Below are positions 4,637 through 36,884 of a DNA stretch of 64,000 nt, piece after piece. The notes beneath the pieces are model-generated. The model searched no databases, was not told where the DNA came from, and saw only the letters and a list, made by a program, of their open reading frames with translations. This stretch comes from Flavobacteriales bacterium (GTDB taxonomy: Bacteria > Bacteroidota > Bacteroidia > Flavobacteriales_C > GCA-002722245), in contig JAHEZL010000007.1 of assembly GCA_023251095.1 (NCBI GenBank), positions 15,136 through 79,135 of the forward strand. The letters are read 5' to 3'. The position numbers and the translations under genes were made by a program. How positions within the stretch are numbered: the first letter of the stretch is position 1; each line of letters starts with the position of its first letter.

Positions 4637-4760
4637 TAGTATAAATGGGGGCAGCTATAAAATTGTTCTTACTCTTTCCTTTTTTTGATTTCTCTTCTCT
4701 TCTCGCGGGAGACACAAATATATGTATTCGTAGGAGAGTAGAAAAAATGTTTTTGCTTCT

Positions 4761-4792
4761 TGCCGTTAAAATAGTCGAATCTGCCGTTAAAT
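4761..4792 (+). promoter_or_regulatory. Direct-repeat pair TGCCGTTAAA x2, 22 bp apart, upstream of A1. This is a putative LytTR operator.
   Basis: Exact 10-mers at 4761-4770 and 4783-4792 lie 34 bp upstream of the TAGATTTG box. Confidence 0.45.
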
Positions 4793-4816
4793 AAATGGAT
4801 GTTTGTTTTGTTTTTT

Positions 4817-4824
4817 TATACCCT
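4817..4824 (+). promoter_or_regulatory. Candidate -7 promoter box TAGATTTG for the A1-B1 transcript.
   Basis: It matches the Bacteroidota TAnnTTTG consensus. It sits inside a 16-nt block (TAGATTTGCTGCCGAG) that is identical to the one upstream of A2. Confidence 0.4.
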
Positions 4825-4872
4825 AGATTTGCTGCCGAGGAAACTAAATTTATTAAACTAAAAAAATCTCTT

Positions 4873-6108
4873 ATGAGAAAGATATTGTTATGCTTGTCGG
4901 CAATTGCCTTGAATGTTTCTGTTAATGCACAATGGACCGGAACTAATCCAATAACAACCACCAGTGCCGTTGGTATTGGAACTACAACTCCTGTTGCCGG
5001 TAATATATTGCAATTAGAAGGAGGGCATTTGGCTATGTACGGCGGTTATATTCTTCCTTATGCAGGAAATTCAACAGTTCTGTTCCGCTCTGTGAATAAT
5101 AATTTTCCTAATTATTGGCTCCCTGAAAATTTAAATACTTACCGTCAATTTGAAATCGCACATGTTAGTCCAAATGGAGTAGATGTTGCCAACAGAAGAG
5201 GGTTCTTAAATCTAGCGGCAAATCAATATATTCAAATGAATGTCAATGGTTTTGATAAAATGAAAGTGGAGGAAACGGGGGTGTCGTTTAATGTAGCTCC
5301 AATCAATTCCTGGGCATCCAATGATGCTTTGATATTCCGTTCAATAAATAACAATTTCAATGGTGTTGTAACACCTCAATTTGAAATTAAACATGTTGAT
5401 CCTAATGGAGTAGAGCTTGCCAACAGAAGGGGTTTTTTGAATATAAAGGCAGATGCCGGAGTATTAAATTTAATGAGTAATCAAACGATTGTCATGTTTA
5501 CCAATGGTGCGCAAAGAATGGCTGTTGATGTAAATGGTAATGTGGGAATTGGACAATCAACGCCGGCTGCTAAGTTAGATGTTAATGGAACAGTAAGACT
5601 TGCTATACCGGGAGCGCAAGCGAGTTATGTATTGACATCATCCAATACAAGTGGAGATGCTACATGGCAGCCAATTTCTTCTTCTCAGTGGACAACAAGT
5701 GGTTCAAATATTACTTATTCAACAGGAGGGAATGTAGGAATAGGAACCAATAATTTTAGCACTCAGGCTACTACTCCTACTAATTCAAGTCAAAACAATT
5801 ATTATAAGTTGGCTGTTAATGGTTCTGTTCGTGCCAAAGAAGTTATGGTAGAATTAAATTGGGCTGATTATGTGTTTTCTAAGGAATATCAACTGAAATC
5901 ATTAAAAGAGGTTGAGCAATATATTAATCAGAATGGACATTTGCCGGGTGTTCCATCTGCTAAAGTTGTGGAAAATCAACAAGTGGGTTTGGGGGAATTG
6001 GCAAAAATTCAACAAGAAAAAATAGAAGAATTGACCCTTTATATTATAGCGTTGAGCAAACAATTAGAAACTCAACAAAAACAGATTGAAATTTTATCTA
6101 CAAAATAA
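4873..6108 (+). CDS. Secreted repeat protein with a tail-fibre-like C-terminal domain and a terminal coiled coil (A1).
   Basis: The listed ORF begins at 4795, but the signal peptide MRKILLCLSAIALNVSVNAQ starts at the ATG at 4873. Internal ~90-aa repeats contain ELANRRGFLN. The C-terminus reads AKEVMVELNWADYVF..LKSL.EVEQYINQNGHLPGVPSA, followed by a coiled coil. It is a paralog of 10361..12232. Confidence 0.5.
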   Translation: MRKILLCLSAIALNVSVNAQWTGTNPITTTSAVGIGTTTPVAGNILQLEGGHLAMYGGYILPYAGNSTVLFRSVNNNFPNYWLPENLNTYRQFEIAHVSPNGVDVANRRGFLNLAANQYIQMNVNGFDKMKVEETGVSFNVAPINSWASNDALIFRSINNNFNGVVTPQFEIKHVDPNGVELANRRGFLNIKADAGVLNLMSNQTIVMFTNGAQRMAVDVNGNVGIGQSTPAAKLDVNGTVRLAIPGAQASYVLTSSNTSGDATWQPISSSQWTTSGSNITYSTGGNVGIGTNNFSTQATTPTNSSQNNYYKLAVNGSVRAKEVMVELNWADYVFSKEYQLKSLKEVEQYINQNGHLPGVPSAKVVENQQVGLGELAKIQQEKIEELTLYIIALSKQLETQQKQIEILSTK

Positions 6109-6138
6109 GTATTGTAATAAAATATAAATCGTGATTTT

Positions 6139-7854
6139 ATGAAAAAAAGTACAATAATTTTGTTTGTCTTTTTCCTTATTGGAATAAGCAAAAGCGCATC
6201 GGCGACTTGGACGATAGATTTTAGTATGACAGATGGTCCTTCGTCAATCCAATTAAGCTGGGTCATTGATTATGCCTGGTATAATTTTGCAACTTTAGAA
6301 AACGGAAAACTTGAAAAAAGAGATGTTACAATAAATTCAGAGTGGGAAATGTATTCCATGTTAGTACTTGATAAACATCATTATCCGGCAGCAAGTCAAA
6401 ATTTCACCGATAATAATGTAATTGCGGGCCATGAGTATGAATACAAAGTTATTTATATATGGCAGGGCGATGTGCACGAGGATGTGGAGCATTTTGGGCG
6501 AATACGACATAGTGTTCCTTCTGTTCCAATTTATGATCCAAATTCATGGCAATTAATTTATCAGGAAGATTTTTCAGGAACATCTCTAGATCCTTCAAAA
6601 TGGTATGTAACCAATAATTATGATTTTTGGGGGAATCCAGATAAAGAAGATCATCATAGACCATATGTAAATACTAACAGACCTCAAAATTTTGAAGTTA
6701 GTAACGGTACTATGAAAATAACCGCTCGTCAGGAAGACTACACTTGTCCTAGCAATGATGCTTATTATTGTGGATATAAAGGTTCATCTGAACCTTATCA
6801 TTACACAACTGCACTTATTGAAACAGACTGTGAGAAATATAAATATGTTTATGCTGAGGCATTGATTAAAGTTCCTTTTAATACTGCAGGCGGTAGAGGT
6901 TTATGGCCGTCATTCTGGACTTTTAGAGCGGAAAACCGTGTGCCTGGTCCTAATGATGCGGGTGAAATTGATATTTTTGAAATGGACCAAGTTCCAAATA
7001 ATCCAGGTGATCAGTGGCTACCTACCAATGTGCATTTGGCATATGGAGATAATGCTCCTGAATGGCAGCAAACAGTGAATATAGGTCCGCATACAGGAAA
7101 TATATGGGTAAAATATGGAATAATGTGGGATGAAAATGTTATTAGATGGTATGTAAATGATGTTTTATATAGAGAAATTTCTAATCCAGGGGTTAATGAT
7201 GCTGAAAGATTTATTTTTAATATAGCTATCAGGGAAAATCCCGATAATTACATTTTTCCGGCTACCATGGAAGTGGATTATTTTAAGGTGTATGGAAAAA
7301 AAGTAAGCATGAATAATTACACTGTTCAGGTAGGAGAAATAAAAAATCAGTACTCCAGTTACAGCATTGATGTTGCCGGAAATGCAAATAATTATATTGT
7401 TGATGCCAATACTTCGGCTCATGGCACTTTAGATCTCTATGCAGAAAATAAAATAAAATTAAATCCAGGTTTTCATGCAAAATTGGGTAGTTCTTTTCAT
7501 GCGGAAATTAATGATGGATCAGAAAGTTATTGTAATCATGCCAATGGTAGTAATTCATATAAAAAAGATGATGATAATTCAGTTGCTAAAGAAAATAAAT
7601 CTGATAAAAAGATTTCAGAAACTGTTTATGGCATTTTCCCCAATCCCAGTAATGGATCTTTTCAAATTAATACTTCACCCGATCAGATTGGATCAAGTAT
7701 CAAAATTAATGATGTAACCGGACGGTTGATTTATAGCGGATTACTTAATGACATCTCTCAGAAATTAGAGTTGGATTTTCTTCCTTCAGGAATATATATT
7801 ATCAATCTGCAAAAAGCGGATCAAGTCTATACTCAAAAACTGATGATTAAGTAA
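6139..7854 (+). CDS. T9SS-secreted GH16-family glycoside hydrolase (beta-glucanase/laminarinase-like) with an N-terminal FN3-like domain and a C-terminal Por sorting domain (B1).
   Basis: There is a signal peptide. The GEIDIFEM motif matches the GH16 E-x-D-x-x-E catalytic motif. The C-terminus (FPNPSNGSFQIN...GIYIINLQ...KLMIK) looks like a T9SS CTD. Confidence 0.65.
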   Translation: MKKSTIILFVFFLIGISKSASATWTIDFSMTDGPSSIQLSWVIDYAWYNFATLENGKLEKRDVTINSEWEMYSMLVLDKHHYPAASQNFTDNNVIAGHEYEYKVIYIWQGDVHEDVEHFGRIRHSVPSVPIYDPNSWQLIYQEDFSGTSLDPSKWYVTNNYDFWGNPDKEDHHRPYVNTNRPQNFEVSNGTMKITARQEDYTCPSNDAYYCGYKGSSEPYHYTTALIETDCEKYKYVYAEALIKVPFNTAGGRGLWPSFWTFRAENRVPGPNDAGEIDIFEMDQVPNNPGDQWLPTNVHLAYGDNAPEWQQTVNIGPHTGNIWVKYGIMWDENVIRWYVNDVLYREISNPGVNDAERFIFNIAIRENPDNYIFPATMEVDYFKVYGKKVSMNNYTVQVGEIKNQYSSYSIDVAGNANNYIVDANTSAHGTLDLYAENKIKLNPGFHAKLGSSFHAEINDGSESYCNHANGSNSYKKDDDNSVAKENKSDKKISETVYGIFPNPSNGSFQINTSPDQIGSSIKINDVTGRLIYSGLLNDISQKLELDFLPSGIYIINLQKADQVYTQKLMIK

Positions 7855-7880
7855 AAAGTTTGTTTTTTTTAATATTAAAT

Positions 7881-7900
7881 CTCCGGTTTTTAACCGGGGA
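7881..7900. terminator. Bidirectional intrinsic terminator hairpin between B1 (+) and the LytTR regulator (-).
   Basis: The hairpin CCGGTT-ttt-AACCGG is flanked by an A-tract upstream and T8 downstream. Confidence 0.55.
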
Positions 7901-7906
7901 TTTTTT

Positions 7907-8659
7907 TTATTCTCCAATTGCAAACTGACTCAAAAAATCATCCTTCCTTCTTCTGGCCACGGCGATTTTTGCGCCGTTTTTCATCACCGCAAAACCACTG
8001 TGTTTTTCATACGATTTTACATGATCGAAATTAATCAGATGTGTTTTGTGAACCCTGAAAAATCTGCTGTCCTTTAGTAGCGTTTCGTATTCCTTTATGG
8101 TTTTGCAAACCAATACAGAAGATTCATCCATGAAAATGAATTTAGTGTAGTTGCCATCTGCTTCGCAGCGGGTAATTTCGTTGATGTTTACAAATTTATA
8201 TCCGCTCGAATCAGGCAATGCAATCTGATGTAAAGTATCGGTTTTAATATTTTGAATAAGACTGTTTATTTTTTTGTTTTCCAGTGAAGTATTGTTTTGC
8301 AAAACAATTTTTTCAAGTGCTTTTTCAACCGCAGTTTTTAATTCAGAAGGATCTATCGGTTTTAAAATATAATCAATCGCAGAAAATTTAAAGGCCTTTA
8401 CTGCAAATTCATCAAAGGCTGTAGTGAAGATGAGTTTGAACTGAATGTTTTCCAGTTTTTCAAAAACAGAAAAACTATTTTCATCTTCCAGCTTTACATC
8501 AGAAAAAACAATTTGAGGGTTATGCGTTTGAATGGCTTTAATCGCCTGCTCTACATTGGTTGCGTGCGCCACAATTTTTATTTCGGGAAATAACGCATTT
8601 AATAAAGATTTTAAATAATCATGAGCCGGCATTTGATCTTCAATGATGATTGCATTCAT
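7907..8659 (-). CDS. LytTR-family response regulator (REC domain plus LytTR DNA-binding domain).
   Basis: An N-terminal receiver domain (IIEDQ...FSDVKLED) and a C-terminal LytTR domain (...FFRVHKTHLINFDHV...) are present. It lies immediately downstream of HK2 on the same strand, consistent with one operon. Confidence 0.85.
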   Translation of the reverse strand: MNAIIIEDQMPAHDYLKSLLNALFPEIKIVAHATNVEQAIKAIQTHNPQIVFSDVKLEDENSFSVFEKLENIQFKLIFTTAFDEFAVKAFKFSAIDYILKPIDPSELKTAVEKALEKIVLQNNTSLENKKINSLIQNIKTDTLHQIALPDSSGYKFVNINEITRCEADGNYTKFIFMDESSVLVCKTIKEYETLLKDSRFFRVHKTHLINFDHVKSYEKHSGFAVMKNGAKIAVARRRKDDFLSQFAIGE

Positions 8660-8661
8660 AT

Positions 8662-9897
8662 TTAAAAGGTTTTTTCGTAAGAAGTAATTAAAGATACTTT
8701 GGTCCCCGCCGGCTGTCCGTTTTTGGCAAATAAATCCATAATTCTGATACTGATATTATCATTTTTATGGAGGGTTTTAATTCTGTTTTCAGTGATGTCC
8801 ATACCCATCGATTTTCTTTTGCTTTCTTTTTTTAATGCTGCCGCTGCCTTTCTGCCAATGCCATTGTCTTCAATTTCAATGGCTAAATATTCCTCGGATT
8901 GAGGACGTATGCGGATGCAAAGTTTATGTTCGTCATTGTTTTGAAAGGCATGTATCAGCACATTTTCCACATAAGGCTGAATGATAAAAGCGGGAATTTG
9001 TATGTTTTCGGTTTCCAGTTCCGAATCAATTTCCATAACAAAAGAAAAGTTTTTCGACATGCTGTGTTGCAGGTCGAGATAGGAGGTCAGGAATGTTTTT
9101 TCTTCTTCTACACTATGGTACAGCTCGTCGGATTTTTCAAGGTTGAAGCGCAATAGATTTGAAAACTTTACGATGTGCTCATGAGCCTCCTCGTTTTTTT
9201 TGGCGTAGGTTAAATTGGCAATGGATGAAAGTGCATTAAAAATAAAATGAGGATTGATTTTTAAGCGCAGGTTTTTTTGTAACAATTCATTTTTCTTTTT
9301 TTCAATTTGTAAGGTTTTCGAAAAGTTTTTATAACGAGCTCTTAAAATAGCATGGTGGCCGTAAATACAGATGGTGAGCATGGTCACCTGATGAATTAAA
9401 AGGAAGGGCATATTTTTAGTGGGACTTCCAACCGGACTGAAATAAATGTTATTAAAAAGATAAATGATGTTGATGATGATAAGCGTTGCCAATCCGTAAG
9501 GTCGCGATGAAGGCATAAATACGGTAAAAGCAATTTCAACGTGAATTAAATAGATGACATGGTCATTCGCGCCCCATCCTCCGTCTAAACCCGAATGAAT
9601 GGAGTTGGGCAGCATGATTAATACAACAGCCAGCAGATAAATCAGCTGGAACCATTTTTTGATTATTTCGGGAAAGAGGTAGGAAGTCACAATAGCTACC
9701 ACACAAAAGGCTATGGAAACGTATTTCAAATTGGTGATGGCGGCAGGCACTCCTCCGGTGCGGTAATCGCGCAGCGGCCCTGCTAAAAAAACCAGTACAA
9801 CAGCCGACAATAAAGTGATTCTGAAAGAAGGCAATATTTCTTCTCCGATATATCTCCAGTAGTCTTCCCGTTGTTTAGCAGATATAATCATTTGCAT
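8662..9897 (-). CDS. Membrane sensor histidine kinase of the LytS/YehU family (HK2), a paralog of HK1.
   Basis: It has the same NPHFIFNAL and HATPase blocks as HK1, with a diverged transmembrane sensing half. There is a 2-bp gap to the response regulator. Confidence 0.8.
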   Translation of the reverse strand: MQMIISAKQREDYWRYIGEEILPSFRITLLSAVVLVFLAGPLRDYRTGGVPAAITNLKYVSIAFCVVAIVTSYLFPEIIKKWFQLIYLLAVVLIMLPNSIHSGLDGGWGANDHVIYLIHVEIAFTVFMPSSRPYGLATLIIINIIYLFNNIYFSPVGSPTKNMPFLLIHQVTMLTICIYGHHAILRARYKNFSKTLQIEKKKNELLQKNLRLKINPHFIFNALSSIANLTYAKKNEEAHEHIVKFSNLLRFNLEKSDELYHSVEEEKTFLTSYLDLQHSMSKNFSFVMEIDSELETENIQIPAFIIQPYVENVLIHAFQNNDEHKLCIRIRPQSEEYLAIEIEDNGIGRKAAAALKKESKRKSMGMDITENRIKTLHKNDNISIRIMDLFAKNGQPAGTKVSLITSYEKTF

Positions 9898-9963
9898 AAA
9901 AGATAACTAGGAGATAACTTCTCTTTAGTTGTTTTGATTTTGAATGTTTCTCGACCTGATAAG

Positions 9964-9971
9964 CAAATATA
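9964..9971 (-). promoter_or_regulatory. Candidate Bacteroidota -7 promoter box (TATATTTG on the minus strand) for the HK2 and LytTR-regulator genes.
   Basis: It matches the TAnnTTTG consensus about 65 nt upstream of the HK2 start codon. Confidence 0.3.
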
Positions 9972-10049
9972 TAAATTTTCGTTGCACGCGATAAATTTGT
10001 TTTTTGAGTAAAATATTGGAAGAGTGCCTATTAAGGAAGGGTGGCCGTA

Positions 10050-10146
10050 AAATTAAAAACCCTCCCGTGATACGGGAGGGTTTTTTAAGATAGCTAGGCT
10101 ACAGGCTTCTTATTCAACATCTGATTTTTAAAATCACAATGTTTTC
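10050..10146 (-). ncRNA. Candidate small RNA, copy 1. It contains the conserved box GCCTGTAGCCTAGCT and a palindrome, and ends in an intrinsic terminator.
   Basis: On the minus strand a TAAATTTG -7 box (10160..10153) lies downstream of the direct repeats. The hairpin CCCTCCCG-tgata-CGGGAGGG at 10060..10080 is followed by a T-tract. No CDS is present. A paralogous element lies at 18765..18905. Confidence 0.3.
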
Positions 10147-10202
10147 GATAGTCAAATTTATATTGAAAATCCGGAAACACACAGGAAACGGGCATGCACT
10201 TA

Positions 10203-10231
10203 TTTAACGGTAGGGATTACTGTTTTAACGG
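10203..10231 (-). promoter_or_regulatory. Direct-repeat pair (CCGTTAAA cores 21 bp apart) oriented toward the minus strand. This is a putative LytTR operator.
   Basis: The + strand has tttaacgg at 10203-10210 and again at 10224-10231. It lies 45-70 bp upstream of the minus-strand -7 box of the candidate sRNA. Confidence 0.4.
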
Positions 10232-10247
10232 TAAGTGATTAAAATTA

Positions 10248-10278
10248 TGCCGTTAATTCAGTCGCCGCTGCCGTTTAA
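10248..10278 (+). promoter_or_regulatory. Direct-repeat pair oriented toward A2 (tgccgttaat and tgccgtttaa, 21 bp apart). This is a putative LytTR operator.
   Basis: It has the same core and spacing as the 4761/4783 pair upstream of A1. The LytTR regulators AgrA and AlgR bind 9-10 bp direct repeats with ~12 bp spacers. Confidence 0.45.
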
Positions 10279-10310
10279 TAAATCTCACTTTTATTTTGAT
10301 TTTTATCACC

Positions 10311-10318
10311 TAGATTTG
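10311..10318 (+). promoter_or_regulatory. Candidate -7 promoter box TAGATTTG for the A2-B2 transcript.
   Basis: The box and its flanks are identical to those at 4817-4832. Confidence 0.4.
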
Positions 10319-10360
10319 CTGCCGAGTAACCTAAAAATATTAAACTAAAAAAACACTCAT

Positions 10361-12232
10361 ATGAAAAAAATGTTATTATGCCTTTCGGCAATCGCCCTTA
10401 CCTCTGCTGCGAATGCACAGTGGACAGGAACCAATCCATTAACAACTCCAAGTGCTGTTGGAATTGGTACATCACCTACCCTTAATTATATTCCTTTGCA
10501 GGTTCGTGCCGATGAGAGTTTATTTGGCGGAAGTGGAATTGTTGCTTCTTTTGAAAGATTCTCTCCAAATCCACTAAGTACAGGAAAACTCAATATTACA
10601 GTGAGTGATTTCGGTGATAGTTATAATGCGGGTGATATATTGATGGATGCTCAGGGGAATGCGGATATCGCATTAAGAACCCAAGGAGGATCAGGCGGGA
10701 TTTTGGTATTAAAAAGAAACGGAACAGTTGGTATCGGAACAGGTACTCCAACTACTGATGCGGCTGTGAAATTACATATTAAATCTTATGGAGCGGATCC
10801 ACAAAACGCTCAAATATTAATTGAATCTTCAGAAACACAAGCTGTGAGATTTGCTCGCTCAGGCATCAATACCTGGATCATGGGAAGAAGAGCAAGCGAC
10901 AATGCTTTTTCAATTACAGATTCCTATTTTTTCGACGGTAACACAGAGAAATTTGTTTTAAATGGTTCAGGATTTTTAGGATTGGGTGCGCAAACTCCAT
11001 CTGAGAAATTAGATATATTAAATGGTAACCTTAAATTAACGAACGGTACTTTTTTACCTTACGGAAATGATACAAGAGTTCTTTTCCAATCGCACAATAC
11101 TTCTGCATCAGGTAGTCCGGTTCAATTTGAAATGTTGCATCAGTCTAGCGGTGTTGAGCTAGCCAACAGAAGAGGATATCTTACTATGAGAGCCGATGAT
11201 GGTAATTTGAATTTACTGAGTTCTCAAAAAGTTTTAATGTACACAGGAGGAGTTCAGAGAATGGTGGTTGATCCAACCGGAAGAGTGGGAATTGGTCAAA
11301 CAGCGCCTGCATCAACATTGGATGTGAACGGAACCTTAAGATTGAGTGTTGCGGGAGCACAAGCAGGCTTTGTATTAACAGCCACCAATGCAAATGGAGA
11401 TGCTACATGGCAGGCACTTCCTACACCTGCTACACAGTGGTCAGTAAACGGAGCAGATGTATATCGTTCTACCGGAAATGTTGGTATTGGAACAAATACA
11501 CCTTCTGCCAGATTCCAGATAGTAGATGGTTCTACTCAAATGAGTTTAATGAGTACAGGTGTTAGCTCAGGAATGTACGGCACACAGTATTATGCAGGAA
11601 TTAATTTTGAAGGAGGAGATAAGATTACAGTTGGAAAAACTTTTAATCCAAATACATACGGAAGTCATTTCGCAATTAAAAATGAAACGAGAGCAAATTC
11701 GGCTTTAATTGCCTTGGCCTATGATAAAGTATACATTGGTGGAAGTTCAGCAGGAGTTAATGCGGTAAGTTTCAGCAATGACGGAGTTGTAAATATCGGA
11801 AGCGGAACTATCCCAGCCGGAAAAGGATATATGCTGGGTGTGAGAGGTAAAATTATTTGCGAAGAAGTAAAAGTTGCTTTGCATGCAGACTGGCCTTGGG
11901 CGGATTATGTTTTTGCTGACGATTACAAACTTACGTCTCTTGATTCATTAGAATCATACATCAAAGAAAACAAGCATTTACCAAACATCAGCTCAGCTAA
12001 AGAAATCAAAGAAGAAGGAATTAACCTGGGCCAAATGCAAAACAAGCACATGGAAAAAATCGAGGAGCTGACTTTGTATATTATTGAGTTGAACAAAAAA
12101 TTATCTGAGCAACAACAGTTGAATACTACAGCTAGTAATTTACAGGCTCAACAAGCTAAGCAAATTGAGCAACTTACTTCAGTGTTAATGGAAGTTAGCA
12201 AGAAAGTGGCAGAGCAAGCGCAGTCGAAATAA
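10361..12232 (+). CDS. Secreted repeat protein with a tail-fibre-like C-terminal domain and coiled coil (A2), a paralog of A1.
   Basis: The signal peptide is MKKMLLCLSAIALTSAANAQ. ELANRRGYL repeats are present. The C-terminus reads VKVALHADWPWADYVF..LTSLDSLESYIKENKHLPNISSA, followed by a coiled coil. Confidence 0.5.
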   Translation: MKKMLLCLSAIALTSAANAQWTGTNPLTTPSAVGIGTSPTLNYIPLQVRADESLFGGSGIVASFERFSPNPLSTGKLNITVSDFGDSYNAGDILMDAQGNADIALRTQGGSGGILVLKRNGTVGIGTGTPTTDAAVKLHIKSYGADPQNAQILIESSETQAVRFARSGINTWIMGRRASDNAFSITDSYFFDGNTEKFVLNGSGFLGLGAQTPSEKLDILNGNLKLTNGTFLPYGNDTRVLFQSHNTSASGSPVQFEMLHQSSGVELANRRGYLTMRADDGNLNLLSSQKVLMYTGGVQRMVVDPTGRVGIGQTAPASTLDVNGTLRLSVAGAQAGFVLTATNANGDATWQALPTPATQWSVNGADVYRSTGNVGIGTNTPSARFQIVDGSTQMSLMSTGVSSGMYGTQYYAGINFEGGDKITVGKTFNPNTYGSHFAIKNETRANSALIALAYDKVYIGGSSAGVNAVSFSNDGVVNIGSGTIPAGKGYMLGVRGKIICEEVKVALHADWPWADYVFADDYKLTSLDSLESYIKENKHLPNISSAKEIKEEGINLGQMQNKHMEKIEELTLYIIELNKKLSEQQQLNTTASNLQAQQAKQIEQLTSVLMEVSKKVAEQAQSK

Positions 12233-12263
12233 ATGTTTTTGAAATTAATTTAAAAATGAAATT

Positions 12264-14519
12264 ATGAAAATACATTTTTTAAAAGCAGGGCTCCTTTTAC
12301 TTTGGTTCTTTTCTTTCATTAGCTCGGCTAAAGCAGAGATAGCCGGTGAAGTTAAGTTTGAAGTTATGTCGACTTACATCAAAATAAGTTGGGATGTATT
12401 TCAAGAAAACCGATATGAGGGAATAGAACTCAAAAGGAGACGAGTAGGGGAATCGGCCTGGCAGTCTATTACTCCAAATGGCTTTGGAGAAACAAATGGT
12501 ACAGTGAATGAATACCAGGAGTTTTGGGATTATAATATTCAATATGGAACTAAGTATCAATATTTAGTTGTTTATGATGAAAAAGCTTGGTACGATGGTT
12601 TTCCAACAGGTAATAATTACAGAGAAGAAATTTTACCGGGAAAACCTACAGCCTGGGGTATTCCCTCTGATGTTGCTGCAGATTTAGAAACCTGGCCTGT
12701 GATCACAGTTAATGGTTATGCTGCTACGGTTCAAGTGTTGTATTCTAACAGATCTGATAAAAGGTTAAAAAAGCCCTTAATCATTGTGGATGGTTTCGAT
12801 CCTTTAAATAACAGGGATTTATTTAGTACAAAAGAAAAAAATGCCATAGATTCAAGAGGACTTTTTGCTTTAATGAATGGTGATCTTCCTTCGGGTCCAA
12901 GAGGAATTAATGCAGTGGGACAAATTCGTCAACAGTGTTATGATTTGGTTTTTGTAAACTGGCATGAAGGAGCCGGAGACGTTAGGAAAAATGCTGATTT
13001 ATTTATTCAAGTTGTCAATTTGGTCAATCAAGCAAAAGTAACCGCCGAACAACTGGTAGTGTTTGGTCCCAGTATGGGAGGTCTGATTACACGTTTAGCT
13101 TTAGCTAAAATGGAGATAAGTGGCCAGAATCACCAAACGAGATTATATATTTCTATGGACTCACCACATTTAGGAGGACAGGCTCCGATGGGTGTTCAGA
13201 AGTTAGGTCAAATAGTAGATAATATTAGAGGGACTCATACATTTGCGGATAGATTGGGATCAACGGCTGCAAAGCAAATGTTGAGATATCATCTTTTTGC
13301 TTCACCAGATGGTCATGTTGCTGATCAAGATGCTGAAAGGTATTCTTTTATTAATGATTTAAACAGTATGAGCAATAAAGGGTGGCCAATGAATTTGCGT
13401 AAAATAGCAATTTCTAATGGAAGTGTTTTGTCGGGCACAAACAGTTTAAATGGCGGTACACATATAGCTGATATCATGTGCGGTGCATTGGAATATGATA
13501 TTTATGCTTTTGGAAGAAGTGATAATGTATATATGATCAATCGTTTAACAACCGTTGAGTATAATACATCGCTGCCTCCGATTTTAACGGATAATTCTAG
13601 TGGTGGAACTATAAACTTTACTGAAATGTTAAGGACGATAGTTACCAATAATGGGGATGATTGTATGCATGATGAAGATCCTGGTCTTCAAACGAGCTCT
13701 TGTTTTATACCAATTAATAGTGCGTTTGCCTATAATGAAGCAGCAGCCAGTGATTATTCTAAGTACAATAATGGATTAAGTGCAGATAATATTCATAAAG
13801 TATGGGGATCACAAACACCATCTACTGTGAATACTCCTTTCGATGCATTGTTTGGTCAAACTTACAATCAAACCCATTGTCAGGTTGACCAAGTAACAAT
13901 TGACTGGCTCCTTCAGCAAATGGCCATTCAGGATCAATACGCTTTTGGAGACACCTATTTTCCTGTTCAAGGAAGTAGCGATATAAGTATCTACACCGGA
14001 GGAGGAAGTAATTGGGCTAAAAATATGTACTTCGCTTCTAATCCAAATGATGGGGCGCACATATATGGTACCGACCGAAAATTCATCGCGTCTAAAAGCA
14101 TTACCTTATCACCGGGTACGAAGGTTTTTTCTCTCGGCGGAACAGATCATCCATACACTGCTTTTCAAATTGGAGCCAGACCGGATTGCTATGGTCCTAT
14201 CACCCAGTATTCTAATCCGGCGGGTCCGCCGCCAATGGCAGAGAAAACTGATGAAACAGCCGATGCGGTTTCAGAGCTAAACATTCAAAATGTAAATGTT
14301 TATCCTAACCCGAATAATGGAAATTTCACTCTTCAGTTAAATCCCGATTGGATCAGTGGAACTATCGTTGTGACGGATCTTACCGGTCGCACTATGTATA
14401 CTGACCAAGTCCGCAGTAGCATGGAAAACATTACAGCTGATATAGCAGCGGGAGTTTACTCTGTTACGATAAGCAAAGGAGACAATAAAATAACTCGAAA
14501 ATTTGTGGTTGTAAAATAA
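12264..14519 (+). CDS. T9SS-secreted alpha/beta-hydrolase, a PGAP1-like/DUF676-type lipase or esterase with an N-terminal FN3-like domain (B2).
   Basis: There is a signal peptide. The nucleophile elbow is VVFGPSMGGLITR (GxSxG), followed by DSPHLGG. The C-terminal T9SS CTD reads YPNPNNGNFTLQL...VYSVTI...KFVVVK. Confidence 0.6.
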   Translation: MKIHFLKAGLLLLWFFSFISSAKAEIAGEVKFEVMSTYIKISWDVFQENRYEGIELKRRRVGESAWQSITPNGFGETNGTVNEYQEFWDYNIQYGTKYQYLVVYDEKAWYDGFPTGNNYREEILPGKPTAWGIPSDVAADLETWPVITVNGYAATVQVLYSNRSDKRLKKPLIIVDGFDPLNNRDLFSTKEKNAIDSRGLFALMNGDLPSGPRGINAVGQIRQQCYDLVFVNWHEGAGDVRKNADLFIQVVNLVNQAKVTAEQLVVFGPSMGGLITRLALAKMEISGQNHQTRLYISMDSPHLGGQAPMGVQKLGQIVDNIRGTHTFADRLGSTAAKQMLRYHLFASPDGHVADQDAERYSFINDLNSMSNKGWPMNLRKIAISNGSVLSGTNSLNGGTHIADIMCGALEYDIYAFGRSDNVYMINRLTTVEYNTSLPPILTDNSSGGTINFTEMLRTIVTNNGDDCMHDEDPGLQTSSCFIPINSAFAYNEAAASDYSKYNNGLSADNIHKVWGSQTPSTVNTPFDALFGQTYNQTHCQVDQVTIDWLLQQMAIQDQYAFGDTYFPVQGSSDISIYTGGGSNWAKNMYFASNPNDGAHIYGTDRKFIASKSITLSPGTKVFSLGGTDHPYTAFQIGARPDCYGPITQYSNPAGPPPMAEKTDETADAVSELNIQNVNVYPNPNNGNFTLQLNPDWISGTIVVTDLTGRTMYTDQVRSSMENITADIAAGVYSVTISKGDNKITRKFVVVK

Positions 14520-14540
14520 CAGATTTCTTTTTCTTTGAAA

Positions 14541-14565
14541 ATCCCCGGTAGAAATACCGGGGATT
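14541..14565 (+). terminator. Intrinsic terminator after B2.
   Basis: The hairpin ATCCCCGG-tagaaata-CCGGGGAT is followed by a T-rich tract. Confidence 0.6.
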
Positions 14566-14576
14566 TTTCTTTTTTC

Positions 14577-14606
14577 TACCGTTAAATAAATCAATATAAC
14601 CGTTCA
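14577..14606 (+). promoter_or_regulatory. A third copy of the operator-like motif (CTACCGTTAAATAAAT plus a second CCGTT core 21 bp downstream), upstream of B3.
   Basis: The 13-mer CCGTTAAATAAAT is shared with the A1 site, and CCGTTtAATAAAT with the A2 site. Confidence 0.35.
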
Positions 14607-14775
14607 TCCTTTTTATTTTTTAAAGAGACTTATCTGCTATAATTTGGTGCTATTGATTATGGGAGTAATCAACTTGAGCATAACTAAAACATAAATTGTG
14701 AAAAGAGTGTTGATCTGCCTTTCGTTATGGCCTTGAATTACCATAACGACTTTTAAAATAACTAAACCTGAACTT

Positions 14776-16980
14776 ATGAAATTAAAAAACTATTCTAGAT
14801 ATCTGTTGATAGCATTGTGTGTCATGGCCGGCAATTTATTTGCTACTCCGGTTACCTTCAATTATTTTACTCCAACTACATCCATTGGTGCTCTTTCTGT
14901 TACAAAAAAGATTGCGTCCGAACACAATGGCTCCATTTGTAGCGGTGAGTATATGACCATATTCGCATCCGGACATACTTCAATTGTGAAGCCATATATT
15001 ATTGTAGAAGGAATAGATTTTTTAAACGATCAGGATTTTCAGGCGCATGTGGATTTATACAACAATAATGTGTCTTCAGCTTCAAATTCTTTGTTGTTTA
15101 ACCTTTACAATAATGGCTATGATGTTATCATACTGGATTTTGATTATTCCGGAGATTATATTCAAAACAATGCTTTCCTGTTAGTGGAATTAATAAAACA
15201 CATCAATGCCATTAAAGCCAATACAGGTAATAATATGATCGTACAAGGTTATAGCATGGGTGGTTTAGTTGCGAGATATGCATTGACATGGATGGAAGCT
15301 AATCTGATTGAGCATCAAACCAGGTTGTTTATTACTCATGACACGCCACACAAAGGAGCAAATTTCCCTATAGGCCTGCAGGAATTAGTGAACGATATGA
15401 CAGAACACATGCCTATTGCTTGGGTTGGGTTTCAAACTATTTTGGCTTCATTTGAAAAATCATATCCAGGCGCTACTCAAATGTTAGTATACCATTGGTC
15501 ACATACACATGGTGGAACTGTTAGCGGTGCAGGAAGTAAAGCACTGCCCGCAAATAAAAAAATAAATTTTTTCCAGGAATTGTATAATCTTAATCCCAGT
15601 GATAATGGTTACCCTTCTAAACCGCTGAGAATTGCTGTTTCAAATGGAAATTATTCAGGTCAACTTCAGGCGGGAATTACCCCGGGAGATGCAATGTTAA
15701 GTTTCAATTATACCCGCACTGTAGGAACAAAGCATTACAAATGGCCTTCTCCACTTTGCGGCAGTCTTTTTGACTTTAATGGATGTGACATTAACTGGGG
15801 TGATGATTATTACAGAGGTACCGCTCGTTATGGATTTACAGGTTATACTGCTACTGAAAATTTTGAGTTTTATACTTCCGGAATTGCAGATTTCGGGAAT
15901 TTGGGTACAAGGACTTATTATCCGCTTTCGGGTAGTGGTTCGCAAAATTTTTCTACAGAAAATTACGATTATGATCGTGCACCGGGGTCCTACCTGCCAA
16001 GTTTCTTTTTAACGATAGTCGAAGATGCCATTAAAACGGGACTTACTTCAGATGTATATATTAATCCTAATCCGCCTTGCTTCATTGCCACTACAAGCGC
16101 ATTAGATTTAAATATGCCTATCAATTCAACTTTCGATCCTAATAACTCTCGTTGTTTTACCAATTTTGATTACATCTTTGCTAACAGTTCGGCCAATTTA
16201 CACCATTTTGAATTGGCTCCTTTGGCAAAAAACTTTATAATGACACATGTTTTGGTTAATGAGGTGCCTAATAGGCCAATTGCTTATCAGGGGTATGATT
16301 TAGTTATTCCCAATAATACTATTGTTTATTCCGGACAATCCTATAACAAAACAGTTCAGCATAACATTACTAATGCTGGGAATTTCACGCTCAAAAGCAA
16401 TAGCTCTTCTGGATTGATTGCTGGAAATTCAATTACCTTTTCCCCTGGTTTTAAAGCAGAAACAGGAAGTAATTTCTCTGCGAAAATAAAATCTGCAAGC
16501 TCAATGTGTAGTGGTGGAATAGCGTATTTACCAAATTATGTCCTTGATTATGTAGTGGGAGGTCCCCCGGTTGAAAATGGTCCGTTGCCAGAAGAAAATA
16601 CAACGGAAGACTTTAGTAACTATGTAGCTTATAATTGCTCAAATATGGAAGAAATGCCTAATTATTCTTCTGAACGAACTTACTTTATTTGTGATGTTGA
16701 TACAACCATTAATATTGATTCAACGCTTGCGCAAAACATTAGTATATATCCTAATCCTACCAGCGGGCCTCTGACCATTCAACTAAGCGATCAAATTCCT
16801 TTAAATGATTTGTCAATTAAAGTTTTTGATCCCTATAACAATTTAGTTGCTGAGTTTTTGACAGTAACATCAAGAACGGTGAATTTAGATTTTTCCAATG
16901 GCTATACAGGCTTGTATAATGTTCAGTTTAATTTCTTTTCCGGCGCGTACATTTATAGCCGGAAAGTCATGAAAATGTGA
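14776..16980 (+). CDS. T9SS-secreted alpha/beta-hydrolase (PGAP1-like lipase or esterase), a paralog of B2 (B3).
   Basis: There is a signal peptide. The motifs are IVQGYSMGGLVARYAL and HDTPHKGAN. The C-terminal T9SS CTD reads YPNPTSGPLTIQL...GLYNVQF... Confidence 0.6.
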   Translation: MKLKNYSRYLLIALCVMAGNLFATPVTFNYFTPTTSIGALSVTKKIASEHNGSICSGEYMTIFASGHTSIVKPYIIVEGIDFLNDQDFQAHVDLYNNNVSSASNSLLFNLYNNGYDVIILDFDYSGDYIQNNAFLLVELIKHINAIKANTGNNMIVQGYSMGGLVARYALTWMEANLIEHQTRLFITHDTPHKGANFPIGLQELVNDMTEHMPIAWVGFQTILASFEKSYPGATQMLVYHWSHTHGGTVSGAGSKALPANKKINFFQELYNLNPSDNGYPSKPLRIAVSNGNYSGQLQAGITPGDAMLSFNYTRTVGTKHYKWPSPLCGSLFDFNGCDINWGDDYYRGTARYGFTGYTATENFEFYTSGIADFGNLGTRTYYPLSGSGSQNFSTENYDYDRAPGSYLPSFFLTIVEDAIKTGLTSDVYINPNPPCFIATTSALDLNMPINSTFDPNNSRCFTNFDYIFANSSANLHHFELAPLAKNFIMTHVLVNEVPNRPIAYQGYDLVIPNNTIVYSGQSYNKTVQHNITNAGNFTLKSNSSSGLIAGNSITFSPGFKAETGSNFSAKIKSASSMCSGGIAYLPNYVLDYVVGGPPVENGPLPEENTTEDFSNYVAYNCSNMEEMPNYSSERTYFICDVDTTINIDSTLAQNISIYPNPTSGPLTIQLSDQIPLNDLSIKVFDPYNNLVAEFLTVTSRTVNLDFSNGYTGLYNVQFNFFSGAYIYSRKVMKM

Positions 16981-17068: not shown

Positions 17069-17989
17069 ATGCAAGGATTGGTCATTAAATCAACAGGGAG
17101 CTGGTACGAAGTGCAATTGGAGAATAAAACTCTTATCTCTGCCCGTATCCGCGGGAAGTTCAGGATGGAAGGTTTTAAAGTAACCAATCCTGTTACCGTT
17201 GGAGATATTGTTGATTTGGAAGAAGACAAAGAGAATTACGTCATTCATAAAATTCATCCGCGAAAAAATTATATCATTCGTAAGTCGGTGAATTTATCCA
17301 AACAGTATCATATTCTGGCAGCCAATCTGGATCAGGCGGTACTGATGGTTTCGGCAACGCATCCTAAAACGTATTCGGAATTTATCGATCGTTTTTTGGT
17401 GACTGCCACTGCTTATCATATTCCGGGTGTGATCATCATCAACAAAACCGATTTGTACGGAGCAGAGGAAATGGAACAGTTGAAACAATGGATGGAAATT
17501 TATACTGCAGCCGGATACAAATGCATTGCCGCAAGTGTGGTCAGCGGAGAAGGAATTAAAGAAGTAGAAGAATTATTGAAACATAAAATATCAGTGGTGT
17601 CGGGACATTCAGGCGTTGGTAAATCTTCGTTGATCAACAAAATTGATCCGCGTTTGAATTTAAAAACAGCCATCGTTTCCGAGATGCACGAGCAGGGAAA
17701 ACATACTACCACTTTTGCAGAAATGCATCCATTGGCTTTTGGCGGATATATTATTGATACGCCGGGAATCAAAGGTTTGGGTTTAGCAGATATGAAAAAA
17801 GAGGAAGTGTGTAAATACTTTCCTGAGTTTTTGCCCTTCGCCGAGCACTGTCGTTTCAACAATTGTGTGCATATCAAAGAGCCCGGTTGCGCGGTGAAAG
17901 AAGCGGTGATCACTAAAAAAATCCGCGAAGAACGTTACAACAGCTACCTCAATATTTACCACGAAGACGAGCAAGAAAATTACAGATAA
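17069..17989 (+). CDS. rsgA: Ribosome small-subunit-dependent GTPase A.
   Basis: It has an OB-fold N-terminus, a circularly permuted GTPase (VVSGHSGVGKSSLIN) and a C-terminal zinc-finger cysteine cluster (CRFNNCVHIKEPGC). Confidence 0.85.
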   Translation: MQGLVIKSTGSWYEVQLENKTLISARIRGKFRMEGFKVTNPVTVGDIVDLEEDKENYVIHKIHPRKNYIIRKSVNLSKQYHILAANLDQAVLMVSATHPKTYSEFIDRFLVTATAYHIPGVIIINKTDLYGAEEMEQLKQWMEIYTAAGYKCIAASVVSGEGIKEVEELLKHKISVVSGHSGVGKSSLINKIDPRLNLKTAIVSEMHEQGKHTTTFAEMHPLAFGGYIIDTPGIKGLGLADMKKEEVCKYFPEFLPFAEHCRFNNCVHIKEPGCAVKEAVITKKIREERYNSYLNIYHEDEQENYR

Positions 17990-18441
17990 TGAAAGCCGTA
18001 GTTCAAAGAGTTTCCCGAGCAAGTGTCACAGTGGATAATTCCATCGTTGGTAAAATTGATCGGGGCTTATTGATTTTACTGGGTGTTCAGGAGGGTGATA
18101 CGCAAGAGGATTTAGAATGGCTCTCCACAAAAATTTCAAAAATGCGCATCTTTTCCGATGCAGGGGGTAAAATGAATTTAGCGGTGCAGGAGGTGAAAGG
18201 AAGAGTTTTGGTAGTGAGTCAATTTACTTTGCTGGCGAGTACTAAAAAAGGAAACCGACCATCGTACGATAATTCAGCAAAGCCCGATATTGCCAAAAAA
18301 ATTTATGAGGATTTCTGCATAAAAATGGAAGAGCTGTTGAACGATAAAATAGAAAGAGGAATCTTCGCTGCCGACATGAAAGTGGAGTTGCTCAACGACG
18401 GTCCGGTTACCATCATCATAGATTCAAAAAACAGAGAATAA
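17989..18441 (+). CDS. dtd: D-aminoacyl-tRNA deacylase.
   Basis: The sequence MKAVVQRVS...GLLILLGV...SQFTL is the canonical Dtd pattern, at about 150 aa. Confidence 0.85.
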   Translation: MKAVVQRVSRASVTVDNSIVGKIDRGLLILLGVQEGDTQEDLEWLSTKISKMRIFSDAGGKMNLAVQEVKGRVLVVSQFTLLASTKKGNRPSYDNSAKPDIAKKIYEDFCIKMEELLNDKIERGIFAADMKVELLNDGPVTIIIDSKNRE

Positions 18442-18767
18442 TGGAAATTTCAGCTTATCAGAAAGAAGTGGATCAGTGGATCAAAGATCACGGCGTTCGC
18501 TATTTTAATGAACTCACCAATACTGCTTTGTTGATGGAAGAAGTGGGGGAGTTGGCACGCATCATGGCGCGGAAATATGGCGAGCAATCTTTTAAAAATG
18601 CCGAAGAAGAAAAAAACTTAGGCGATGAAATGGCCGATGTACTTTTTGTGCTCACTTGTTTGGCCAATCAAACAGGAGTGAATCTGGAAGAAGCGATTAA
18701 ACGAAACATGGAAAAGAAAACTTCGCGCGATAAAAACCGACATAAAGAGAATGATAAATTGAAATAA
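18441..18767 (+). CDS. MazG-like nucleotide pyrophosphohydrolase (YpjD family).
   Basis: The EEVGELARI and DEMADVLFVL motifs are present, at 108 aa. Confidence 0.75.
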   Translation: MEISAYQKEVDQWIKDHGVRYFNELTNTALLMEEVGELARIMARKYGEQSFKNAEEEKNLGDEMADVLFVLTCLANQTGVNLEEAIKRNMEKKTSRDKNRHKENDKLK

Positions 18768-18905
18768 AAAAAACCTCCTGTTTAAGGAGGTTTTTTTTGT
18801 TTAGCTAGGTTACAGGCACTCTTACCAACATGTATATTTTCACATGTTTTTTTATAGTTGTAAGGATCAACTGGGTTAAAAGTATAGTGAAAACAGCAGA
18901 AGCCC
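18765..18905 (-). ncRNA. Candidate small RNA, copy 2. It contains GCCTGTAACCTAGCT and a stem AACATGT/ACATGTT, and ends at the bidirectional terminator.
   Basis: The 3' ~60 nt align with copy 1 (TAGCTAGGYTACAGGC..CTTA..CAACAT..ATTTT..ATGTTTT..ATAGT). Three CGG-core repeats lie upstream at 18928-18981. The -7 box is imperfect (TATCTTTT). Confidence 0.25.
18774..18790. terminator. Bidirectional intrinsic terminator (CCTCCT-gtttaa-GGAGG) flanked by A8 and T8.
   Basis: The hairpin has an A-tract upstream and a T-tract downstream. It terminates the mazG-like gene on the + strand and the candidate sRNA on the - strand. Confidence 0.55.
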
Positions 18906-18927
18906 ACCATAAAAGATAGAGCACTTA

Positions 18928-18981
18928 TTTTGCGGTAAGAAATGCAGTTTTATCGGTTGGATTTATAGATTAACGGCAGGG
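18928..18981 (-). promoter_or_regulatory. Three operator-like repeats (TTTTGCGGTAAGA, TTTTATCGGTTGG, ATTAACGGCAGGG) at ~20-21 bp spacing, oriented toward the minus strand.
   Basis: They resemble TTTAACGGTAGGG and TTTTAACGGTAAG at 10203-10235. The flank CACTTATTT is conserved in both copies. Confidence 0.3.
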
Positions 18982-19017
18982 TAAACTCATAATCCATCTT
19001 GCGAATGCAAAAAAAAA

Positions 19018-19041
19018 TCCCTCCCGATTGCCCGGGAGGGA
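19018..19041 (-). terminator. Intrinsic terminator for the minus-strand small Cys-rich gene.
   Basis: The hairpin TCCCTCCCG-attgc-CCGGGAGGGA has a T9 tract on the minus strand. Confidence 0.55.
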
Positions 19042-19062
19042 TTTATCATTTATAGTCGGCTA

Positions 19063-19356
19063 TTATTCATGCTTGCAGCATCCTTTTTTACCTTCTTTGC
19101 TGTCGCATTTTTTATCAGCAGCACAGCATTTGTTTTTCTCACACAATGCTTTGCATTCTTCAGCAAGTTTTTTACCTGCTTCGCTGTTTTTTTCTGCATC
19201 GGTCATGGCTTTGTACTGAGCACATTTTTCCTTGCATACTTTGTCTTTGCAGTTTTTACAGCAGTCGGCTTTTTTACAACAATCACCATCTCCGGCGTTA
19301 GCGGTAAATGCGAAGGCAAATAAAGCGATGAATAACATTCCTATATACTTTTTCAT
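19063..19356 (-). CDS. Small secreted Cys- and Lys-rich protein (16 Cys in a ~76-aa mature region), possibly metallothionein-like and metal-binding.
   Basis: The signal peptide is MKKYIGMLFIALFAFAFTANA. There are CC, CxxC and CxxxC clusters. A terminator lies downstream. The opposite-strand ORF 19069..19323 is a Phe-rich shadow. Confidence 0.45.
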   Translation of the reverse strand: MKKYIGMLFIALFAFAFTANAGDGDCCKKADCCKNCKDKVCKEKCAQYKAMTDAEKNSEAGKKLAEECKALCEKNKCCAADKKCDSKEGKKGCCKHE

Positions 19357-19410
19357 AATTGTAGAATTAAAATGGTTTGAATAATTAAATTAATTTTTCG
19401 ATTGGATTAT

Positions 19411-19734
19411 TCAAACTTTAGGAGGGTTCCACGCTTCTCCGTTGAAAACAGAAAGTATGTTTTCTGAACGTAAATTCATTTTTTCTTTGGTGACAACAGC
19501 TTTTTTAAAAGAAAGGGTTTGCGATTGTGGAATAAAGCCCATCATGGAGCAGCAGCTTACAAAGGGATTACAGCCTTTTCCGTAGCAATTTTTTTTGTGG
19601 TTTTTTTCAGGAGTTTGTTCGTTTTTTACTTTGCAACAGGAGTGTTCTTTTTTCACTTCATGATTGGCCATCAAAGTATCTGCTGATACCAGTATTAAAA
19701 TATGAAGGGCCAATATGCTTGCTAAAAATTTCAT
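19411..19734 (-). CDS. Small secreted Cys-containing protein of unknown function (CC...C..C...CC pattern).
   Basis: There is a signal peptide (MKFLASILALHILILVSA) and cysteine pairs (SCCKVK..., CYGKGCNPFVSCCS). Confidence 0.4.
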   Translation of the reverse strand: MKFLASILALHILILVSADTLMANHEVKKEHSCCKVKNEQTPEKNHKKNCYGKGCNPFVSCCSMMGFIPQSQTLSFKKAVVTKEKMNLRSENILSVFNGEAWNPPKV

Positions 19735-36707: not shown

Positions 36708-36800
36708 TAACGATTTATAAAGGCTACAAACCTAAGCCATTTTTTATAAAAATCACAATTGAATTTTTGCGGAATTATCCTTTAAACTACAGCTTAAGAG

Positions 36801-36873
36801 TGGATGTCATCCTGACGAAGGAAGGACCTACTGTAGTGGGCGATAGGTCCTTCCTTCGTCAGGATGACATCCA
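36801..36873. repeat. Long perfect inverted repeat (29-bp stem, 15-nt loop).
   Basis: The arm TGGATGTCATCCTGACGAAGGAAGGACCT at 36801-36829 pairs perfectly with 36845-36873. Confidence 0.8.
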
Positions 36874-36884
36874 TACTCAAAAAA

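Follow-up and report, generated by a model that had tools for sequence, protein, structure and literature searches.

Downstream of a mazG-like gene, the flavobacterial DNA analysed here (a stretch of 64,000 nucleotides, hereafter the window, with a G+C content of 38%) carries a minus-strand unit that runs from a predicted promoter to an intrinsic terminator, lacks a conserved reading frame, has a paralogue in the same window and is preceded by repeats that look like regulator sites. This unit, copy 2 of a two-copy element, is quite probably a promoter cassette controlled by LytTR-type boxes. What the cassette would produce is a more tentative matter: copies 1 and 2 are best read as predicted LytTR-activated small RNAs outside any Rfam family, a reading to which we give somewhat less than an even chance, and the claim that they are functional sRNAs acting in trans deserves slightly less credence again. 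The link between boxes, promoter and terminator, common to these readings, rests on sequence anatomy.

Anatomy of the two copies

Copy 2 lies within the 295-nt spacer that separates the mazG-like gene (18441-18767, plus strand; PF03819) from a convergent, cysteine-rich 97-aa gene (19063-19356, minus strand), and the whole cassette occupies 18768-19002 on the minus strand. Each of the two flanking genes is provided with a G+C-rich intrinsic terminator (18766-18798 for the mazG-like gene and 19015-19044 for the 97-aa gene), and the closest homologues of the window's MazG are annotated as originating in Flavobacteriales and Bacteroidetes metagenome-assembled genomes. The N-terminus of the 97-aa protein resembles a signal peptide, and CC/CxxC motifs are numerous in its sequence; neither its gene nor the adjoining 107-aa gene (together 19063-19734, minus strand) has a match in Pfam or NCBIfam, and both are kept beside mazG in the related locus L041.

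An earlier note on this DNA had proposed that the terminator of a mazG-like gene is followed here by a second copy of the copy-1 element, complete with a hairpin (AACATGT/ACATGTT) and the same sequence flanking its repeats. The gene label and the terminator are both correct, and the second copy is borne out by a 99-nt alignment of the two copies at 70.7% identity (E = 1.4e-7) that includes a shared 16-mer; the hairpin is present at 18827-18848, folds, and has an equivalent in copy 1 at 10116-10143, and the flank GCACTTATTT is indeed found at both copies (18921-18930 in copy 2 and 10196-10205 in copy 1), as is AAATAAGTGC, which directly follows the proximal box in each. The 16-mer, TAGCTAGGYTACAGGC, occurs exactly twice in the window (10091-10106 and 18802-18817) against a chance expectation of 0.01; its copy-2 form on the minus strand, GCCUGUAACCUAGCUA, agrees with copy 1 at 15/16 positions, which within an alignment of about 70% identity is, by our own estimate, not strongly improbable. 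In RNA form, the sequence shared by both copies reads GCCUGUARCCUAGCUA.

The element is confined to one lineage, in which both copies were recovered in assemblies of several samples and copy 1 is 100% identical in the assemblies of other samples. The search for further copies that the earlier note had called for, performed with blastn and tblastx on the window, a further 13 kb flanking it in the source genome and the related loci, found no third copy, which leaves two in about 77 kb of this genome. Exact searches with the 16-mer returned 39 matches in 185,579 species genomes (representatives, the source genome not being among them), all of them chance matches in unrelated contexts; among the at least 120 matches listed from JGI metagenomes, none had a hairpin or terminator context and all were again due to chance. 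These genome and metagenome scans revealed no homologue of the element outside this lineage. Rfam gave no match at the gathering threshold over the whole window, and an E-value scan of 18700-19100 returned sub-threshold matches only, driven by the terminator. Cross-species conservation with covariation was not found for an element known as two copies in one lineage, two sequences carrying no covariation signal.

Copy 1 is a minus-strand unit at 10050-10160. Its perfect Bacteroidetes-type -7 box, TAAATTTG (10153-10160, minus strand), lies 50 nt downstream of the CCG core of the proximal regulator box; the copy-2 candidate, TACTTTTA (18877-18884, minus strand), fits the TAnnTTTG consensus at 7/8 positions, lies 51 nt downstream of its proximal CCG and is aligned with the copy-1 box by MAFFT. 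TAnnTTTG occurs 61 times in the 128 kb formed by both strands of the window. At two protein-gene promoters that carry the same regulator boxes, the -7 box TAGATTTG (10311-10318 at one site) follows the proximal CCG after 40 nt, a distance one helical turn shorter than the 50/51 nt of the two copies. As the -7 box occupies positions -12 to -5 relative to the transcription start (PMC9723704), the predicted starts fall at about 10148 in copy 1 and about 18872 in copy 2. The predicted copy-2 RNA would thus extend over 18763-18872 on the minus strand (about 108 nt), from this projected start to the U-run of the shared terminator, and the copy-1 RNA would measure about 98 nt.

Both predicted RNAs fold alike, into a 5' hairpin (SL1, AACAUGU/ACAUGUU in copy 2), a largely unpaired 16-mer and a terminator. 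In copy 2, most of the 16-mer is left unpaired by the minimum-energy fold and all of it by the centroid fold, which makes it a candidate seed; outside the terminator, the fold of the two copies is no better than that of shuffled sequence (z of -1.2 and -1.5). When the 16-mer was scanned against the 74 start regions of the window, the best pairing reached -17.4 kcal/mol, compared with a median of -16.3 and a minimum of -20.8 for shuffled seeds; no mRNA 5' region in the window thus pairs better than with shuffled seeds.

The copy-2 terminator (18766-18798) is bidirectional, with an A-run, a CCTCCT/AGGAGG stem and a T-run, and is so placed that it may serve both mazG on the plus strand and the copy-2 unit on the minus strand. 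The terminators of the two copies are strong, with perfect arms of 14 and 18 nt. No plus-strand gene ends at the copy-1 terminator (10055-10086); since there is no such gene for it to serve and the kinase operon downstream has a -7 box of its own, this terminator is assigned to the small unit itself. Each copy displays the anatomy of an sRNA gene, with its own predicted promoter, an intrinsic terminator and no conserved ORF beyond a shared one of eight codons. A second perfect -7 box TAAATTTG is found on the plus strand at 9992-9999, followed by about 85 nt and then by the copy-1 bidirectional terminator (to 10086); this region (9992-10086) may represent a convergent small transcript and has the 10-mer AAGAGTGCCT in common with copy 2, its alignment to the copies being ambiguous.

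The eight-codon mini-ORF, MLNKKPVA* in copy 1 (10094-10120, minus strand) and MLVRVPVT* in copy 2 (18805-18831, minus strand), is the sole reading frame common to both copies and is the same in frame and length; its start codon falls inside the SL1 stem of the predicted fold, and in copy 1 its stop lies 8 nt before the terminator A-tract and 13 nt before the GC stem. A public gene call places a 42-aa ORF at 18782-18910 on the minus strand of copy 2 (P0001, on 3 contigs), which in a search of 5.8 billion proteins matched itself alone and is probably spurious. The starts of this ORF and of a 33-aa ORF of copy 1 coincide with the predicted promoter or precede it, and the two ORFs differ in the frame in which they cross the conserved 16-mer; the weak similarity between them (8 residues, E = 0.038) is explained by DNA identity, and the 42-aa ORF was rejected as a protein family, having no homologue and sharing residues that follow from the DNA match. 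Nothing in copy 1 corresponds to the hydrophobic 39-aa ORF of copy 2 (18805-18924), and the plus-strand ORFs of 22 and 24 aa share only their first five codons between copies. A type I toxin-antitoxin system was considered and rejected, the small hydrophobic ORF not being kept between copies.

LytTR-type boxes and the neighbouring two-component system

Upstream of copy 2, three boxes (CCTGCCGTTAATCT, CCAACCGATAAAAC and CTTACCGCAAAATA in the minus sense; 18926-18980) have CCG cores at 18976, 18956 and 18935. The earlier note had described three CGG-core repeats spaced by about 20 bp and called them operator-like: the repeats are present, with a spacing of 20 and 21 nt, and their character as regulator sites stands, sharpened in that they are direct repeats with a 21-bp period and the look of LytTR activator boxes. 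Copy 1 is preceded by the pair CTTACCGTTAAAAC and CCTACCGTTAAATA with 21-nt spacing (10201-10235, minus strand). On the plus strand, a further pair (CCG at 10250 and 10271), together with a -7 box, spans 10246-10318 and precedes a 623-aa gene and its T9SS cargo operon, and a paralogous site is located at 4759-4831. Three perfect pairs at exactly 21 nt are thus found, two on the plus strand before paralogous genes and one on the minus strand before copy 1; read in the sense of the downstream unit, the box consensus is [T/C]T[G/A]CCGTTAAA with a 21-bp period.

A position weight matrix trained solely on the six strong boxes of these three pairs, all of them elsewhere in the window, and scored over 128 kb on both strands returned the copy-2 pairs as next best, at 22.8 and 17.7; the next real site scored 11.8 and the maximum of 20 shuffles was 14.1. 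The 64 kb hold four box clusters only (4763/4784 and 10250/10271 on the plus strand, 10231/10210 and 18976/18956/18935 on the minus strand), all with a spacing of 20-21 nt and in one orientation relative to the downstream unit. The copy-2 boxes, like the copy-2 -7 box, are degenerate. LytTR regulators reportedly bind two direct repeats of 9-10 bp that lie 11-12 bp apart (PMC2766830), and as the geometry of the boxes in the window matches this description, the repeats are read as LytTR sites.

The genes at hand fit this reading. A two-component operon (7907-9897, minus strand) directly follows copy 1 in the same orientation and encodes a LytS/YehU-type histidine kinase (8662-9897; PF06580) and a REC+LytTR response regulator (7907-8659; PF00072 and PF04397, E = 3e-17), whose best NCBIfam matches, BtsR and LytR, stay below the cut-offs of those models. 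A separate, perfect -7 box for this operon, TATATTTG, begins at 9971 (minus strand), and the regulator gene is about 10 kb from the copy-2 boxes. A second LytS-type kinase (3413-4636; PF06580) shares 61% amino-acid identity with the first. The paralogous plus-strand genes at 4873 and 10361, which stand behind box pairs, encode signal-peptide proteins without a family match, and behind them come genes for T9SS-tailed GH16 and lipase-like proteins; the same boxes as at copies 1 and 2 thus head two secreted-protein operons.

Full-length homologues of the window kinase are few (42-56% identity; L043, L046 and L047), and a kinase-protein search of metagenomes found nothing. At all three of these loci, two ACCGTT-core repeats at 21 nt adjoin the kinase gene, from which it follows that the boxes travel with the two-component system. 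A nearby LytTR regulator, direct repeats with a 21-bp period and cross-genome co-occurrence with the two-component system are thus combined at this locus, and by this anatomy and co-occurrence the repeats are predicted LytTR activator sites and not generic operators.

The two paralogous kinases, the single LytTR regulator and the two box-controlled operons form a 13.6-kb block (3413-16980) between der (2034-3338) and rsgA (17069-17989). In L041, der and rsgA are adjacent and the block is hence absent; at the der-rsgA position of L042, a LytTR gene fragment of 62 aa is accompanied by two other genes.

In the mechanism that we propose, the regulator, phosphorylated and paired with both kinases, would bind the direct repeats (core CCGTTAAA), which sit upstream of a weak Bacteroidetes-type promoter, and its binding would activate an RNA of about 100-110 nt. 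Four promoters would fire, those of the two secreted-protein operons and of the two small RNAs. The body of each RNA would consist of the 5' hairpin, the unpaired 16-nt stretch and the intrinsic terminator, with no conserved coding frame, and both RNAs would pair with target mRNAs through the exposed 16-mer; we infer here that it is this regulator that binds, that the units are transcribed, that they start where predicted and that their RNAs act in trans. As the same boxes head two T9SS operons, the RNAs would constitute the post-transcriptional arm of a secreted-protein regulon.

Alternative readings of the element

The alternative that survives best, if still unlikely, is that each copy is a non-functional relic, a LytTR promoter fused to a terminator after gene loss or rearrangement and then duplicated, so that the likeness of the copies would reflect descent and not selection. 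The spacer behind mazG differs in every relative examined, and copy 2 is absent from the equivalent position in all four (L168, L041, L042 and L043). In L168, with a MazG of 99% identity, the place of the cassette is taken by a palindrome of about 90 nt; L041 (94%) has a different hairpin and L042 (91%) an unrelated sequence, and in L043 (84%) the genes overlap. The degenerate boxes of copy 2 also suit a relic. A precedent of sorts is offered by L043, where the kinase is 56% identical to that of the window: on the minus strand at 9760-9975, a pair of LytTR-type boxes precedes a -7-like box, TATACTTG, by 41 nt, and about 128 nt further on a terminator stands just upstream of rsgA. This unit has short unconserved ORFs only, no significant fold (z of -0.6) and no similarity to the copies; its terminator is positionally homologous to the one that ends the cargo operon of the window, and the unit is probably the relic of a deleted cargo operon. 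Against the same origin for copies 1 and 2 speaks the fact that the element resembles neither the 5'UTRs nor the 3' ends of the existing cargo operons. Moreover, boxes, box-promoter spacing, hairpin, 16-mer and terminator are all kept in both copies, although amino-acid identity between the paralogous kinases has fallen to 61%.

Two further possible sources of the element, the 5'UTR of a tail-fibre gene and an extended palindrome around the terminator, were rejected, their similarity not being significant. The mazG spacers of L168 (905-985) and L041 (3295-3450) are taken up by long near-perfect palindromes of REP/MITE-like appearance, such as GTCATTGCGAGGAACGAAGCAATCG with its complement, and a similar inverted repeat with 37-nt arms, 92% complementary, is found at 36794-36880 of the window. 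Farther along, within a coding region (51219-51563, plus strand), a 27-nt motif (GG.TGTCC.GATAC.GA....GA.GG) recurs five times with a spacing of 75-81 nt; these repeats resemble Asp-rich repeats of the calcium-binding type.

A role in cis, as leader or attenuator, is improbable. Transcription of copy 1 would here pass the terminator in part and enter the kinase-regulator operon, with positive autoregulation as the outcome; translation of the mini-ORF might adjust the degree of read-through, and copy 2 would send antisense transcripts into mazG, dtd and rsgA. In favour of this, copy 1 stands directly upstream of that operon and is co-oriented with it, and the mini-ORF has been kept in frame and length in both copies. 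However, no co-oriented gene follows copy 2, so that the model fits copy 1 only; the perfect arms of both terminators argue against appreciable passage, the operon is equipped with a separate, perfect -7 box beyond the terminator, and the start codon of the mini-ORF is buried in SL1.

Still less probable is a gene for a small peptide, signalling or autoinducer-like, beside the kinase and the regulator, with the 33/42-aa or the eight-codon ORFs as candidates. In the three-component systems of Gram-positive bacteria (comCDE, plnABCD), the pheromone gene stands beside the kinase and regulator genes, a layout mimicked by the order of boxes, small unit, kinase and regulator at copy 1; the annotation of the 42-aa ORF by a gene caller and its weak similarity to the 33-aa ORF point the same way. 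These longer ORFs, however, start level with the predicted promoter or before it and disagree in frame across the 16-mer, the 42-aa ORF has no homologue, and the 8-aa peptide lacks an export signal and has a structured start codon.

A generic terminator-associated repeat of the REP or MITE type, or a plus-strand 3'UTR element of mazG, is effectively excluded: both copies do abut terminators, and palindromic elements do occupy the same spacer in relatives, but there are two copies only, at 71% identity in about 77 kb and both with boxes, their flanks are not inverted repeats, the matches to the 16-mer in 185,579 genomes and the at least 120 listed from metagenomes all lie in unrelated contexts, no plus-strand gene precedes copy 1, and the orientation of the boxes suits minus-strand transcription. 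The interpretation given in the earlier note thus holds in part: the element is not REP-like and is a paralogous unit running from a predicted promoter to a terminator, but the claim of a functional RNA family finds no support, an Rfam match, a homologue outside the lineage and a copy 2 in the four relatives all being missing.

Comparison with known regulatory systems

Small-RNA units controlled by LytTR boxes, the reading that we prefer for copies 1 and 2, can be set beside several characterized systems. The pheromone genes comC, plnA and silCR likewise form a small unit with LytTR direct repeats immediately upstream of kinase and regulator genes, and the SilA site comprises two 10-bp repeats with an 11-bp spacer (PMC2766830); unlike them, the present units have no conserved peptide ORF and no leader, and no transporter gene is seen nearby. 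Independent sRNAs of flavobacteria, such as Rfp18 of Flavobacterium psychrophilum, which has been linked to secreted-protease expression (PMC9723704), are similar in being stand-alone units in which a TAnnTTTG -7 box is combined with an intrinsic terminator. No homology to Rfp18 was detected, and Rfp18 is kept across a genus, whereas copies 1 and 2 are found in one lineage.

The signal-to-sRNA wiring of Bacteroidota is almost unmapped, and little has been established about what their abundant LytTR systems sense and control; our literature search found no report linking LytTR regulators to sRNAs in Bacteroidetes. Bacteroidota are not known to possess Hfq. The locus presents itself as a compact putative regulon, with one regulator, two kinases, a box consensus, two secreted-protein operons and two candidate sRNAs. 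It is conceivable, if more speculative than the sRNA assignment itself, that it represents a LytTR system in which two paralogous RNAs of about 100 nt serve as the post-transcriptional arm and are co-activated with T9SS operons, an arrangement resembling those of RNAIII and VR-RNA and independent of them in Hfq-less Gram-negative Bacteroidota.

In Staphylococcus aureus, AgrA drives RNAIII from the P3 promoter (PMC3673130). The proposed resemblance lies in a LytTR regulator that acts on a pair of direct repeats within a divergent promoter region to drive a regulatory RNA, and in the location of this region next to the system's own two-component genes, copy 1 having a divergent operon under box control on one side and the kinase and regulator genes on the other. 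By comparison with RNAIII, which is 514 nt long, the predicted RNAs measure about 100 nt, have no hld-like ORF and show neither sequence nor Rfam similarity to it; the AgrA system also differs in that the host here belongs to the Bacteroidota, with -7/-33 promoters, and in that the unit exists as two paralogous copies with no agrBD-type peptide genes seen.

VirR/VirS and VR-RNA of Clostridium perfringens provide the second example of a two-component system working through a regulatory RNA. VirR boxes are located directly upstream of vrr, virT, virU and secreted-protein genes; boxes shared by several small RNAs and secreted proteins are a feature that would be matched in the window. VirR/VirS is described as working through VR-RNA (PMC3673130), and VirR appears, in the references given in PMC2766830, among LytTR-type regulators as binding imperfect direct repeats. 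Phylum, box sequence and RNA sequences all differ, and the flavobacterial system is known from its sequence alone. Should the two units be relics, the locus would illustrate the duplication and loss of regulator-dependent promoter cassettes; should their RNAs be real, it would constitute an independent case of the design known from Firmicute pathogens, in which a LytTR regulator drives an effector RNA.
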